Below, one piece after another: positions 21,656-64,000 of a stretch of 64,000 bases of DNA (position 1 is its first letter; each line of letters begins with the position of its first letter). The stretch is from Escherichia coli 042. Lineage in GTDB: Bacteria > Pseudomonadota > Gammaproteobacteria > Enterobacterales > Enterobacteriaceae. The translations under genes and the position numbers were made by a program. Location of the stretch: the NCBI RefSeq assembly GCF_000027125.1, contig NC_017626.1. One strand, written 5' to 3'. The notes beneath the pieces were generated by a model that was not told where the DNA came from, ran no database searches, and saw only the letters and a program-made list of their open reading frames with translations.

Positions 21656-22210
21656 TCCCCCTCCCCCGGTGACGTTTGTTGCCGGGTTTTCTCGTTTTTG
21701 GTCACATACCCATCAATTTATTTCATTTGTTATATGAATGTTTCTTACCACCCTCACGCGATAAATATCATTACAGTTAATATGTCATACAATTTATGTT
21801 GTAACGCAAACGTTTCCCTATTTTCATAAACCACATTTTATCGCTATGAAAAAGAAATTATCGCCATGATTAACTAAAAGTATTGATTTTTTCAGTTCAA
21901 CCTACATATATTGCGCGCCCCGGAAGAAGTCAGATGTCGTTTAATGGGCAAATATTGCCCTTAAATTCTCTTTTACTTTTGATTTACAGAGTAAAGCGTT
22001 GGGATAATCTATCTTCCAAGTAGATTATTGTATTTGGGATCAAGATCACTGATAGATACATAACTTGTGTGTATCTTTCCGCCCTCAAATTATTACGGCG
22101 GTAAATGATTAAGCCATCGCCGATAGACAGATTTCATTTTTACGGTCAGGCACCTTCCCGGGCTGAACTGGCTAAAAGCTGAATTATTTGCATTCCTCCA
22201 GGAGAAATAG

Positions 22211-27720: not shown

Positions 27721-28266
27721 TAGCTACCTCTCTCTGATTCAAAACAGGGCAATAATGTTGTTCCTTTCACACTATTGAATTAGCCGTTTAATTACCCACC
27801 ATCTTCTTCCTGATTAACAAGAAAGAAATTCACAAGCTTATATTTTGTGACCTGGTTCAACTAATCACAGTAAATAACTGCAACTTCTCTTTTTATAATC
27901 CCATTAAAAATGACCGCTCTTAAAAATATTTATCAAAACGGTCATTTTTCCATTCCCTCTCGCCAGAAATGCCCGTTTTCGGCACAAACAATTAATACGG
28001 TCATCGGGTTTGTGTTTTTTATGATTTATTTTCTGAAACGGGCATGAAATTTCGATTATTAAAGTGATGGTAGTCACATAAAGTCACCTCCCAGCTAATA
28101 AGTGTGACCGCCGTCATATTACAGAGCGTTTTTTATTTGAAAATGAATCCATGAGTTCATTTCTGACAGGCAAATATTCACTGATATGAAGCCCGAACTC
28201 GCTGGTTTTGCACTTTTGAAAACATAACCGATTACGTGCTTAAGCTTCTGAACCTAAGAGGATGCT
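27721..28266. promoter_or_regulatory. Divergent fucAO / fucPIKUR control region with repeated inverted motifs and two CRP-like sites
   Basis: AAAATGACCG-N22-CGGTCATTTT at 27907-27948; related ATGCCCG/CGGGCAT and ACGGTCAT motifs at 27967-28050; aGTGA-N6-TCACA at 28063-28078 and TGTGA-N6-TCATA at 28103-28118. Confidence 0.6.
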
Positions 28267-32919: not shown

Positions 32920-33342
32920 ATGCTGAAAACAATTTCGCCGTTAATTTCTCCCGAACTATTGAAAGTGCTGGCAGAGATGGGACATGGAGATGAAATTATT
33001 TTTTCCGATGCTCACTTTCCCGCCCATTCGATGGGACCGCAGGTGATCCGCGCTGATGGCCTGTTGGTGAGCGACTTGCTCCAGGCGATTATCCCGTTAT
33101 TTGAACTGGACAGTTATGCACCGCCGCTGGTGATGATGGCGGCGGTAGAAGGTGACACTCTCGATCCTGAAGTAGAACGACGTTACCGTAATGCGCTTTC
33201 ACTACAAGCCCCGTGTCCTGACATCATCCGCATCAATCGTTTTGCGTTTTATGAACGGGCACAAAAAGCCTTTGCGATCGTTATCACAGGCGAACGAGCG
33301 AAGTACGGGAATATTCTTTTAAAAAAAGGGGTAACACCGTAA
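32920..33342 (+). CDS. fucU: L-fucose mutarotase
   Basis: 140-aa RbsD/FucU-family ORF. Confidence 0.9.
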
Positions 33343-60222: not shown

Positions 60223-62469
60223 CTATAACCCTCCGCGAATCAACCCGCCCATGCCGCGACGCTCCATAAAGGCTGCAACCTGATGGCGAACTTCGGTCGC
60301 CAGTTGCGCTTCCAGACTACGCTGCGCAAGATTTTCTGCTTCGGCATAATCAATGCGCCGCAGCAGGTATTTTACGCGCGCTACAGAACGTCCGTTCATA
60401 GACAGATGACGATACCCAAGCCCAATGAGGATTGCCACGCACATGGGATCGCCCGCCATTTCACCGCACAAACGGAGATCGATACCATGTATTTCCGCTT
60501 CCCGAGCGATCATCGCCAGAGCTCGTAACATTGCAGGATGAAGACTGTCATAAATGTTCGCCACCCGGGTATTGTTGCGATCAACGGCCAGGATGTATTG
60601 AGTCAGATCGTTGGTGCCAACAGAGATAAAATCGACCCGCTTTGCCAGATGCGGCAGCATAAATACCATTGACGGCACTTCAAGCATGATGCCGATACGT
60701 GGTTTGGGAATTTCGTAACCGATCATCTCCTCGACTTCACGTCCGGCACGTTCAATCAGGCGGCGTGCTTCGTCAACTTCATCGAGGCTGGTGACCATCG
60801 GCAACAGAATATTCAGGTTGCCCGTAGCGGCATTAGCACGCAGCATCGCCCGCACCTGGATCAAGAAGATCTCCGGCTGATCGAGCGTAATGCGAATCCC
60901 ACGCCAACCCAGGCATGGATTCTCTTCGCTGATCGGCATGTAAGGCAGCTGCTTATCTGCTCCGACATCCAGCGTACGCAAGGTGACGGGTTTATCATTG
61001 AACATTTGCAGCATCCCCTGATACTGCGCCACCTGTTCTTCTTCCGACGGAAAACCACTTTGCAGCATGAATGGGATTTCAGTGCGATAAAGACCGATGC
61101 CATCAATACGGCTGCCCAGTTTTTCTTCATGTTCCGGGCTTAAACCAGCATTGAGCATGACTTTTATACGCTCACCGCTTTTTAACTGGGCGGGTAAATT
61201 GACGTCATCTTCCGCCAGACGGCTAAGCTCAATCTCTTCACTAATTAGCCGCTGATATTCTTGCAGCAGTACCGGCTCCGGATCGACCAGCAATTCACCG
61301 CGATAGCCATCAACGATCAGCGTCCTACGATGCAGCACCGAAGGCTGAATATCCGCGCCCATCACGGTAGGGATCCCCAGCGCACGTACCATGATCGCAG
61401 CATGGGAGTTGGCTGCGCCATCTCGCACGACAACACCGACTAAGCGATCCTGGGGCAGCTCAGCAAGCGTTGTCGCTGACAGTTCATCTGCCACCAGAAT
61501 GAAACGTTCCGGCCAGGCATTCGGCCCTTGATTAGCGTCATCAAGATGAAACAGCAATCGCTGACCCAGCGCACGTAAATCGCCAGCCCGCTCTTTGAGA
61601 TAGTTATCGCTTAGCGCGGCAAACTGTTCGGCAAATTTTTCAATGACCGTTTTTACCGCCCACTCTGCCACCGAGCCTTTATCAACCTCGGCAAACAATT
61701 CGCGACGCAGCCGGGTGTCCGAAAGCAGGTGCGAGTAAAGATCGAAAATAGCCGCCGTTTCTTTTTGTGCACCGGCGGCAAAGCGTTTGCTGTAGCGGCG
61801 AAACTCGTTTGCCGCTCCTTCCAGCGCCCCGGTCAGTCGTTCGCGTTCCAGAGCCGGATCCAGCGTTGATGCCTGATACACCTGTTCCATTAAAGGTAAC
61901 GTGGCATCCTGCCAACCTTCGGCAATCGCCACACCAGGTGCTGCCGGTAATGCACGGATTCGCGTCTGGCGATATTGCCCAAACAAGGCAGTCAACTGCG
62001 ACTGAGAAAGAATAGCTGCCATCTGGGTGGCAAGCGTCACCAGGAAGGATTCTTCACTTTCGTCATACTGGCGCAACTCTCGTTGCTGTACCACCAGTAC
62101 ACCAAGCAACTGGCGACGTTGAATAATTGGTACGCCTAAAAACGCGCGGAAACGTTCTTCTTTTACGGAGGGGATGTATTTGAAGCTGGGGTGCTTTTGC
62201 GCATCTGCAAGGTTTATCGGTTCCGCCAGCCTGCCAACCAGGCCGACGATCCCTTCATCAAACGCGAGCGTTACAGTGCGACCGCGTGGTTTTTTCAGCC
62301 CCCGGGTCGCCATCAGGTAGTAACAACGTCGATCATGATCGGCCAGGTAGACCGAACAGACCTCGGTATCCATCGCAAGACAGATGTCGGTAACCAGAAT
62401 ATTTAACGCCTCATTCAGGCGTGGTGCGCTGGCTACCTTTTCGACTATTTCGCGCAGGCGAGTGAGCAT
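60223..62469 (-). CDS. ptsP: Nitrogen-PTS Enzyme I (GAF domain plus PEP-utilising enzyme)
   Basis: 748-aa ORF. Confidence 0.95.
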   Translation of the reverse strand: MLTRLREIVEKVASAPRLNEALNILVTDICLAMDTEVCSVYLADHDRRCYYLMATRGLKKPRGRTVTLAFDEGIVGLVGRLAEPINLADAQKHPSFKYIPSVKEERFRAFLGVPIIQRRQLLGVLVVQQRELRQYDESEESFLVTLATQMAAILSQSQLTALFGQYRQTRIRALPAAPGVAIAEGWQDATLPLMEQVYQASTLDPALERERLTGALEGAANEFRRYSKRFAAGAQKETAAIFDLYSHLLSDTRLRRELFAEVDKGSVAEWAVKTVIEKFAEQFAALSDNYLKERAGDLRALGQRLLFHLDDANQGPNAWPERFILVADELSATTLAELPQDRLVGVVVRDGAANSHAAIMVRALGIPTVMGADIQPSVLHRRTLIVDGYRGELLVDPEPVLLQEYQRLISEEIELSRLAEDDVNLPAQLKSGERIKVMLNAGLSPEHEEKLGSRIDGIGLYRTEIPFMLQSGFPSEEEQVAQYQGMLQMFNDKPVTLRTLDVGADKQLPYMPISEENPCLGWRGIRITLDQPEIFLIQVRAMLRANAATGNLNILLPMVTSLDEVDEARRLIERAGREVEEMIGYEIPKPRIGIMLEVPSMVFMLPHLAKRVDFISVGTNDLTQYILAVDRNNTRVANIYDSLHPAMLRALAMIAREAEIHGIDLRLCGEMAGDPMCVAILIGLGYRHLSMNGRSVARVKYLLRRIDYAEAENLAQRSLEAQLATEVRHQVAAFMERRGMGGLIRGGL

Positions 62470-62481
62470 AATTGGCGTGAC

Positions 62482-63012
62482 TTAACCTCTTTTACGTCGA
62501 TAAGCAGATGCGTTTTGTGGTTTTGGCGTATTTTCCTGCAGTGACATCACCACACTCGCGAACTCTTTCATTACCCTACGGTAGACATCACGTTTAAATG
62601 ACACCACCTGTCTGACTGGATACCAGTAACTTACCCATCGCCAGCCGTCAAACTCTGGTGTACTGCTGGTTTGCATATTGATTTCTGCATCGCCGCTCAC
62701 CAGCTGCAAGAGAAACCATTTTTGTTTTTGGCCGATACAAACCGGCTTCGTGTCCCAACGCACCAAACGTTTCGGTAATTTGTAGCGCAACCAGTTACGC
62801 GTTGAAGCAAGGATTCGAACGTCTTTGCGGCTTAATCCTACTTCTTCAAACAATTCACGGTACATCGCCTGCTCTGCGGATTCTCCGGGGTTGATTCCGC
62901 CTTGCGGAAATTGCCAGGAGTGCTGACCAAATCGCCGGGCCCACATTACCTGCCCCTGGCGATTACAAATCACGATACCTACGTTTGGGCGGTAGCCATC
63001 GTCATCAATCAC
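62482..63012 (-). CDS. rppH: RNA pyrophosphohydrolase (Nudix)
   Basis: 176-aa ORF from GTG start, [20 protein letters not shown], Nudix box. Confidence 0.9.
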
Positions 63013-63149
63013 CGGACTACCTCAAAATAAAGCTTTATATACGAATGATTGTTTCATACTCCAGGAAGACGGTAAACCACTCTCTGCAGGGCATTACACA
63101 CTAATAACAATTGAATAACTCACAGTTATGTGCAGAGTTATAAACAGAG

Positions 63150-63510
63150 GAAGGGGTGGATAGCCGTTTTTATTCACCTTTTCTGTGGATAGAGTTGTGA
63201 AGAACTACGGAATTACTACGGGAAAACCCAGAGCATTCTGAATAAGCCCGATATAGATATTTTAAAATATTCATTATCAGTCAATGCATTACATATAATT
63301 TGAGTAATAAAAAAGAGTAATTCGTGACCCAGGTCACACCTCTCATTTACGGGTTGGCGAAAGATCAACCAATGCGGTATTTATCCACAGAATGTGCCAC
63401 TAAGTTAAGCACTGAACCACTAAAAACTGGAGTTTCGTCGCACGTCAAGGCTGTAAATGGAAACAGTAGTGGAGGTTTTTCACAGTTATCCCAGCTTTCT
63501 GTGGATAACA
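63150..63510. promoter_or_regulatory. DnaA-box cluster consistent with DARS2 (DnaA-reactivating sequence 2) in the rppH-mutH intergenic region; boundaries approximate
   Basis: Three closely spaced DnaA-box-like 9-mers at 63155-63192 (GGTGGATAG, TTATTCACC, TGTGGATAG) and two perfect consensus boxes at 63381-63389 (TTATCCACA) and 63500-63508 (TGTGGATAA) in 684 bp of AT-rich noncoding DNA. Confidence 0.55.
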
Positions 63511-63696
63511 TGGTGTAAGATCCTGTTTATTTTCAGTGACCAGATTTGGAAAACCCATTGCAGTGTTGCGCAACTCGATTACCGGCAACCTAAAAAGCAA
63601 TATAAATCAGAGAATTGAACAACGCATGTGGAAAAAGTTACACTGCGAATATTCGGCACATAATTGCTGTTTGTTTTTTAACCAAGGTATCGTGAC

Positions 63697-64000
63697 ATGT
63701 CCCAACCTCACCCACTGCTCTCTCCTCCCGAAACTGAAGAACAGTTGTTAGCGCAAGCACAGCAACTTTCTGGTTATACATTGGGAGAACTGGCAGCACT
63801 TGCCGGGCTGGTTACACCAGAGAATTTAAAACGCGATAAGGGCTGGATTGGCGTGTTACTGGAGATCTGGCTAGGTGCCAGCGCAGGAAGTAAACCTGAG
63901 CAAGATTTTGCTGCTCTGGGCGTGGAACTTAAAACTATCCCTGTGGATAGTCTTGGTCGTCCGCTGGAAACAACATTCGTTTGTGTAGCCCCGTTAACGG
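63697..64000 (+). CDS. mutH: Methyl-directed mismatch repair endonuclease MutH, 5' portion (continues beyond window)
   Basis: ATG at 63697; [37 protein letters not shown]...; open to the window end. Confidence 0.9.

Follow-up and report, generated by a model that had tools for sequence, protein, structure and literature searches.

The palindrome and its setting

What recognises the perfect palindrome that lies beside the DnaA boxes of DARS2 in the rppH–mutH spacer of Escherichia coli, and does it contribute to DARS2 function? How replication initiation in E. coli is tied to nutrient status is still unsettled, and among the cell-cycle-regulated and growth-phase-regulated sources of ATP-DnaA the main one is DARS2, so that the identity of a regulator bound within this element is of some consequence. 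We examined the locus in a 64-kb window (the whole stretch of E. coli 042 DNA analysed, 64,000 nucleotides, to which all coordinates refer). The palindrome, GTGACCCAGGTCAC, was verified at 63324–63337; its arms GTGACC and GGTCAC are exact reverse complements separated by the spacer CA. The distances given in an earlier note, made from the sequence alone, were also correct: the DnaA-box cluster at 63155–63204 lies approximately 120–130 bp upstream of the palindrome (the note gave 130 bp), and the perfect DnaA box TTATCCACA at 63381–63389 lies 44 bp from its right end. The locus is chromosomal, comprising a 684-bp rppH–mutH spacer that is present in 5,424 of 5,426 complete E. coli genomes. Its features, with the DARS2 elements placed on the window using the primer sequences of Kasho et al. 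2014 (PMC4245941), are as follows.

60223–62469, minus strand: ptsP
62482–63012, minus strand: rppH, the gene to which the literature assigns the CRP site, with 318 bp between its start codon and the CRP centre
63155–63204, no strand: DARS2 core DnaA-box cluster, identified by DnaA-box matches and near-invariant across Enterobacterales
about 63263–63291, no strand: IHF sites IBS1–2, essential for DARS2, placed by the subIBS1–2 primers Ksh-16 and Ksh-19; one mismatch each to consensus, ungapped register conserved
63315–63329, no strand: Fis site FBS1, GAGTAATTCGTGACC, the 15 bp replaced exactly by primers Ksh-3 and Ksh-4; overlaps the left CRP half-site
63320–63341, no strand: 22-bp cAMP-CRP binding site, attCGTGAcccaggTCACAcct, with its 16-bp core at 63323–63338 and its centre between 63330 and 63331
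63324–63337, no strand: the palindrome GTGACC-CA-GGTCAC, whose outer GTGA and TCAC are the CRP half-site cores
about 63356–63373, no strand: essential Fis sites FBS2–3, placed by primers MutH-24/25 and Ksh-20/21; very highly conserved across 50 Enterobacterales
63360–63380, no strand: critical 21-mer of DARS2, placed by the same primers (MutH-24/25, Ksh-20/21) and likewise very highly conserved across the 50 Enterobacterales
63365–63511, minus strand: ygdT, an annotated ORF (K-12 annotation) with its stop codon 27 bp from the palindrome
63381–63389, plus strand: DnaA box V, TTATCCACA, whose first base is 50 bp downstream of the CRP centre
63697–64000, plus strand: 5' part of mutH, which extends past the window end; its start is 366 bp from the CRP site

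As a palindrome with 6-bp arms and a 2-bp spacer, the feature is unremarkable and occurs at chance frequency. The window holds 19 perfect palindromes of this form, where 15.6 would be expected naively and first-order Markov simulations give 17.9 ± 4.1, and the pattern GTGACC-CA-GGTCAC with at most one mismatch was present in 16 of 100 shuffles. A second perfect example lies within the same spacer, at 63257–63270; it is AT-rich and overlaps the IHF site IBS1. The significance of the feature derives solely from its conservation and from published experiments, both of which favour a different register, one of 4–5-bp half-sites separated by 6 bp.

A CRP binding site at the palindrome

Read in that register, the palindrome is, we conclude with high confidence, a high-affinity site for a cAMP-CRP dimer, with one subunit occupying each half-site (cGTGA and TCACA) and six unconstrained base pairs lying between them. 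The sequence CGTGACCCAGGTCACA departs from TGTGA-N6-TCACA at one of the 10 specified positions, and its half-site spacing is exactly 6 bp. A CRP weight matrix was constructed from 106 sites in the CRP ChIP-seq table of enterotoxigenic E. coli (ETEC) H10407, with the rppH site itself excluded. The site scores 16.8 bits on this matrix, ranking first among the approximately 64,000 positions of the 64-kb window and falling at the 90th percentile of the 106 ChIP-seq sites, which have a median of 13.1 bits. The 16-mer core is identical in K-12. Other strong matches to the matrix in the window lie at 33273–33288, 28063–28078 and 22035–22050: TGCGATCGTTATCACA (15.5 bits), which is the fucU/fucR site of the ETEC ChIP-seq table, AGTGATGGTAGTCACA (14.5 bits) and TGGGATCAAGATCACT (13.1 bits).

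Three genome-wide studies have already reported CRP at this position, and the feature itself is therefore not new. Footprint-seq (Wang, Stringer and Wade 2026, PMC12871828) lists the entry '2969301 ttCGTGAcccaggTCACAcct 2.7 rppH / mutH', with Kd in nM, in its Table 1, which collects novel CRP sites whose Kd is below 10 nM; the sequence is identical, giving a Kd of approximately 2.7 nM in vitro. Table 1 of Haycocks et al. 2015 (PMC4287617), a ChIP-seq study of CRP-3xFLAG in ETEC H10407 cells in M9-fructose, includes the CRP peak '3265047 TGTGACCTGGGTCACG ... rppH', and the called motif TGTGACCTGGGTCACG is the reverse complement of the CRP site in the window. Finally, genomic SELEX placed rppH among new CRP targets (Shimada et al. 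2011, PMC3105977). The earlier note had seen in the palindrome the geometry of a dimeric regulator site; the dimer is borne out by CRP, a regulator that the note did not consider and whose binding is documented in vitro and in vivo, while the 6+2+6 geometry gives way to half-sites with a 6-bp spacer as the conserved unit.

Conservation of the CRP box

Conservation was assessed in 80 rppH loci taken from GTDB representative genomes, among which Salmonella and Klebsiella are not represented. The rppH–mutH spacers were extracted where mutH was syntenic, and 50 Enterobacterales spacers were aligned with DnaA box V as the anchor. A perfect GTGA-N6-TCAC is present in 20 of the 21 Enterobacteriaceae loci, its centre exactly 50 bp upstream of the first base of box V, and at least 12 different inner hexamers occur among these conserved boxes. 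Mean pairwise identity across the 21 loci is 0.95 for GTGA and 0.93 for TCAC, against 0.48 for the inner 6 bp and 0.34–0.48 for the flanks. At the conserved register the orthologues score 12–18 bits on the CRP matrix, versus at most 10 bits elsewhere in the same spacer. The conserved unit is (T/C)GTGA-N6-TCAC(A/G), that is, a CRP box, and these data show that purifying selection maintains the CRP half-sites, at one fixed position, across Enterobacteriaceae.

On the same alignment, the inner CC and GG bases of the palindrome arms are to be read as an Escherichia-specific coincidence. The most divergent E. coli match, PKF8 (CGTGACCCAGATCACA), has GATCAC as its right arm, with only an inner base changed, and thus breaks the 6+2+6 palindrome while keeping the CRP half-sites. 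We therefore reject the reading as 6-bp arms with a 2-bp spacer, on the grounds that the inner arm bases are not conserved and that such palindromes occur at chance frequency.

Across the 50 Enterobacterales, spacer length is approximately 680–700 bp and the DnaA boxes, IBS, FBS2–3 and box V are near-invariant, whereas conservation is low in the palindrome columns. Near-complete CRP sites lie 47–48 bp from box V in Rahnella and Budvicia. A perfect left half alone is present in Yersinia, Serratia, Hafnia and Edwardsiella; in these loci (L028, L032, L035, L038, L040, L042 and L051, at the register of window 63320–63340) the left half reads AAATGTGATCTATG(C/T)(A/C)CG, an extended CRP half-site that lacks a proper partner across a 6-bp spacer and that may bind CRP weakly or else bind another factor. 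No CRP site is found at the E. coli register in Erwiniaceae or Pectobacteriaceae, and most Yersiniaceae are without the CRP box, though they retain the DARS2 elements. The Vibrionaceae rppH–mutH spacers contain no CRP-like site anywhere; they keep the DARS2 DnaA boxes, and the Enterobacterales that lack the CRP site keep the IHF and Fis elements as well. Among the loci labelled Enterobacteriaceae, one alone, from Enterobacter sp. BIGb0383 (L019), has no CRP box; it retains IBS, FBS2–3 and box V, and loss of the CRP site is thus tolerated. Because the box is missing from lineages that retain the DARS2 elements, it is not an integral part of DARS2; judged by this phylogenetic distribution, it is an addition to DARS2 in the Enterobacteriaceae lineage. 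The conservation comparison proposed in the earlier note thus gave a divided answer: the site is conserved within Enterobacteriaceae (20 of 21) and absent from most other Enterobacterales and from Vibrionaceae.

Some further observations concern the same alignments. In two Pectobacterium loci (L050 and L053) a CRP-like site of 16–17 bits, AGTGATCGTCATCACA, lies approximately 127 bp upstream of mutH, at spacer position 561–576 or thereabouts, roughly equivalent to window 63571; this may represent site turnover. GATC occurs inside the CRP spacer in 11 of the 21 Enterobacteriaceae (L005, L007–L009 and L011–L017; orthologous to window 63324–63370). Together with a conserved GATCC approximately 12 bp downstream and the GATC of FBS2–3, this makes three Dam sites in approximately 45 bp, of which E. 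coli keeps only that in FBS2–3. The cluster may have to do with control by Dam or SeqA, exerted either on DARS2 or on CRP binding. Finally, segments 63443–63467, 63047–63083 and 63513–63535 are near-invariant across the 50 Enterobacterales, and no assigned function for them was found in the papers examined; examples are CACGTCAAGGCTGTAAATGGAAACAGTAG and another block upstream of rppH.

Position of the CRP site within DARS2

Mapped from the published primers, the CRP site lies inside minimal DARS2, between IBS1–2 and FBS2–3. Its centre (63330.5) is approximately 53 bp from the IHF sites and approximately 34 bp from the essential Fis site. The 22-bp site overlaps FBS1 by 10 bp, and the left arm of the palindrome, GTGACC, lies within FBS1. 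In the current loop model, IHF binds roughly halfway from the DnaA core to the Fis site, and the resulting loop lets Fis contact DnaA.

The published dissection of DARS2 (PMC4245941) bears directly on whether CRP binding is needed there. The substitution subFBS1 converts TTCGTGACC to TTCGATACG and thereby the left CRP half-site from CGTGA to CGATA; DARS2 carrying it was fully active with crude extract, with purified IHF and Fis, on a plasmid and on the chromosome. All of the in vivo dissection was carried out in M9 medium with 0.2% glucose and casamino acids. As the substitution destroys the left half-site and DARS2 remains active, DARS2 function does not depend on CRP binding in glucose plus casamino acids. 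The suggestion of the earlier note that the palindrome could be a DARS2 accessory-factor site holds as to location, since it lies inside DARS2 with its left arm in a Fis site, and fails as to requirement under these glucose conditions, subFBS1 leaving DARS2 fully active; it fails also as to co-conservation with the DARS2 core, IBS and FBS2–3, the site being absent or reduced to half-sites outside Enterobacteriaceae and absent in Vibrionaceae. In the comparison with Fis footprints that the note had proposed, the left arm falls within the published, footprinted FBS1, a site dispensable for DARS2. What the palindrome represents is thus an already known CRP operator rather than an accessory site that DARS2 requires.

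Alternative explanations

If the palindrome were incidental and the selected function were that of FBS1 as a DARS2 accessory Fis site, one would cite the in vitro Fis DNase I footprint there (PMC4245941) and the fact that GAGTAATTCGTGACC is the sole strict match to the Fis consensus, GnnYAnnnnnTRnnC, in the intergenic region. However, at this register the Fis consensus is perfect in only one of 21 Enterobacteriaceae orthologues, versus 20 of 21 for the CRP core, and on this ground we reject FBS1 as the conserved function; moreover, FBS1 spans the left arm only and so cannot explain the conservation of TCAC(A), and it is dispensable for DARS2. We regard this explanation as very unlikely. A required architectural role for the CRP site in the exchange of DnaA-ADP for DnaA-ATP, like that of IBS1–2 and FBS2–3, would fit its place in minimal DARS2, where its distance to box V and FBS2–3 does not vary, and spacing in the IHF–Fis arm does matter for DARS2 activity, a 5-bp shift of IBS or FBS being impairing (PMC4245941). 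Against this, subFBS1 removes the left half-site without reducing DARS2 activity, whether in vitro or in vivo, the purified IHF and Fis system is active without CRP (PMC4245941), and the site is missing from most non-Enterobacteriaceae that keep the core, IBS and FBS2–3. This reading is highly improbable overall, and for glucose conditions it is effectively refuted by subFBS1. That the palindrome arose by chance and has no function is scarcely credible: palindromes of its form do occur at chance frequency (19 observed versus approximately 18 expected), but 20 of 21 genera or species have perfect half-sites at one fixed position while their flanks have diverged to 34–48% identity, and published data show CRP binding at nanomolar affinity as well as occupancy in vivo.

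The palindrome might instead act in RNA, as a minus-strand hairpin followed by a T-tract that terminates ygdT or other leftward transcripts before they reach the DARS2 core and rppH. A consensus scan flags minus-strand TGTGACCTGGGTCACG followed by AATTACTCTT, the ygdT stop codon lies 27 bp before the hairpin, and shielding DARS2 from transcription would make sense. However, the fold is no more stable than that of shuffled sequences (z = −1.46, with 23 of 200 shuffles folding as well), the T-run begins 7 nt past the stem and belongs to a tail that is T-rich in Escherichia only, and conserved half-sites around a free 6-bp spacer are the signature of a protein site rather than of a stem. The non-significant fold and the unconserved T-tract lead us to reject the terminator, which has very little probability in our estimation. 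The gene that it would serve is itself in doubt. The ygdT ORF is intact in Escherichia only; most other genera, Citrobacter and Enterobacter among them, have stop codons in this register, and the residues that seem conserved fall on DnaA boxes or other blocks of conserved DNA. The ORF is thus probably not a real conserved gene. As it is broken outside Escherichia, we reject ygdT as the gene served by the site, whether through a promoter or a terminator, and the palindrome is unlikely to be its terminator.

A rival of greater weight accepts the CRP site as genuine and holds that its sole output is ordinary control of rppH–ptsP or mutH, its location in DARS2 being a by-product of a crowded intergenic region. 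All three CRP studies assign the site to rppH or rppH/mutH, the product of ptsP is a PTS-family enzyme and would fit the CRP regulon, and the mutH-proximal site in Pectobacterium, which has none at the E. coli position, could be turnover serving a flanking gene. On the other side stand the distances, 318 bp to the rppH start and 366 bp to the mutH start, and the lack of conserved promoter elements on the rppH side, where 63293–63317 is unconserved. In addition, an rppH-directed transcript from the CRP site would cross the DARS2 core, a region reported as transcriptionally quiet and as losing its activity when transcribed. This explanation is a serious contender, though we think it somewhat less probable than its negation.

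Possible regulatory outputs

The fit to the CRP motif, the selection on the half-sites, the nanomolar binding and the occupancy in ETEC in fructose medium are established. The regulatory output is inferred, and we weigh four possibilities by rough estimates. Classical CRP control of a promoter feeding rppH–ptsP, as assumed by the ChIP and SELEX papers, is plausible, although we would put it below even. Modulation of DARS2-mediated DnaA reactivation at high cAMP, most likely damping, is possible but doubtful. A class II-type promoter directed towards mutH is unlikely, and it is similarly improbable that CRP binding here is without consequence.

CRP binding bends DNA by approximately 90 degrees. 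Combined with the 10-bp overlap with FBS1, such a bend means that CRP should alter the loop geometry and exclude Fis from FBS1: the additional bend would fall inside the IHF–Fis arm of the loop, and a dimer occupying its 22-bp site would leave FBS1 inaccessible to Fis. Alternatively, CRP may activate a local promoter whose transcription passes through DARS2 and turns it off. Transcription through DARS2 abolishes its function, and native transcription at the element is reported to be very low, so that a CRP-activated promoter here could serve as a switch. Turning to candidate promoters, a class II geometry would place the CRP centre 41.5 bp upstream of a putative start at 63372, with the conserved AAAGAT at 63360–63365 occupying −12 to −7 as a putative −10 element; this is a geometric observation only. 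A consensus scan returned no convincing sigma-70 promoter next to the CRP site, and promoters predicted from RNAP-SELEX lie elsewhere in the spacer, not at the CRP site (Shimada 2014); an adjacent sigma-70 promoter was rejected on these grounds.

We tentatively propose, while considering it on balance unlikely, that cAMP-CRP is an unrecognised third regulator of DARS2 that tunes DnaA reactivation and replication initiation to carbon-source quality in Enterobacteriaceae. Bound between the IHF and Fis sites, CRP would reshape or block the IHF–Fis–DnaA loop, or would start DARS2-inactivating transcription. The use of glucose medium, or the lack of cAMP, in every DARS2 assay would explain why such a role had escaped notice.

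Two literatures, one DNA

No link between CRP and DARS2 was found in the literature searched: CRP and cAMP are unmentioned in the DARS2 papers and reviews examined, and the Footprint-seq paper (PMC12871828) makes no mention of DARS. The DARS2 papers describe the Fis site FBS1 and the CRP papers an rppH CRP site, and it appears to have gone unrecognised that these are the same DNA. It likewise appears to be unrecognised that the DARS2 assays to date all fall outside CRP-active conditions. Mutations made in one context hit the other too, subFBS1 being an example. A conserved nanomolar CRP site in minimal DARS2, occupied in a non-glucose medium, offers a concrete and cheaply testable hypothesis for a link from nutrient status to initiation. 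Should the site regulate rppH–ptsP only, it would add a further entry to the large CRP regulon and hold modest interest.

Comparison with known systems

The site resembles canonical CRP-N sites (consensus AAATGTGATCTAGATCACATTT) in its inverted TGTGA/TCACA half-sites, 6-bp spacer and A/T-leaning left flank, as well as in its nanomolar affinity, its in vivo occupancy and a matrix score in the top decile of ChIP-seq sites. It differs in that canonical sites prefer T/A beside the half-sites, whereas the E. coli site has C/G (GTGAC/GTCAC). It differs also in lying inside a replication-control element, over 300 bp away from either flanking start codon, with no known associated promoter or CRP-dependent transcript.

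Within DARS2, the nearest comparisons are the bound accessory sites. FBS1 (Kasho et al. 2014) physically overlaps the CRP site, but covers half of the palindrome only, and its consensus is not kept in orthologues. Like IBS1–2 and FBS2–3, the CRP site sits in the same minimal DARS2 fragment at fixed spacing and is bound by a DNA-bending dimer; unlike them, it is not required in the glucose conditions tested, and it is conserved in Enterobacteriaceae only, whereas IBS, FBS2–3 and the DnaA boxes are conserved across Enterobacterales. More broadly, IHF and Fis at oriC and IHF at datA have functional evidence behind them, whereas CRP at DARS2 is known from binding and conservation alone. If CRP does affect DARS2, it would share with those systems the use of a global DNA-bending regulator to couple cell physiology to the DnaA cycle.
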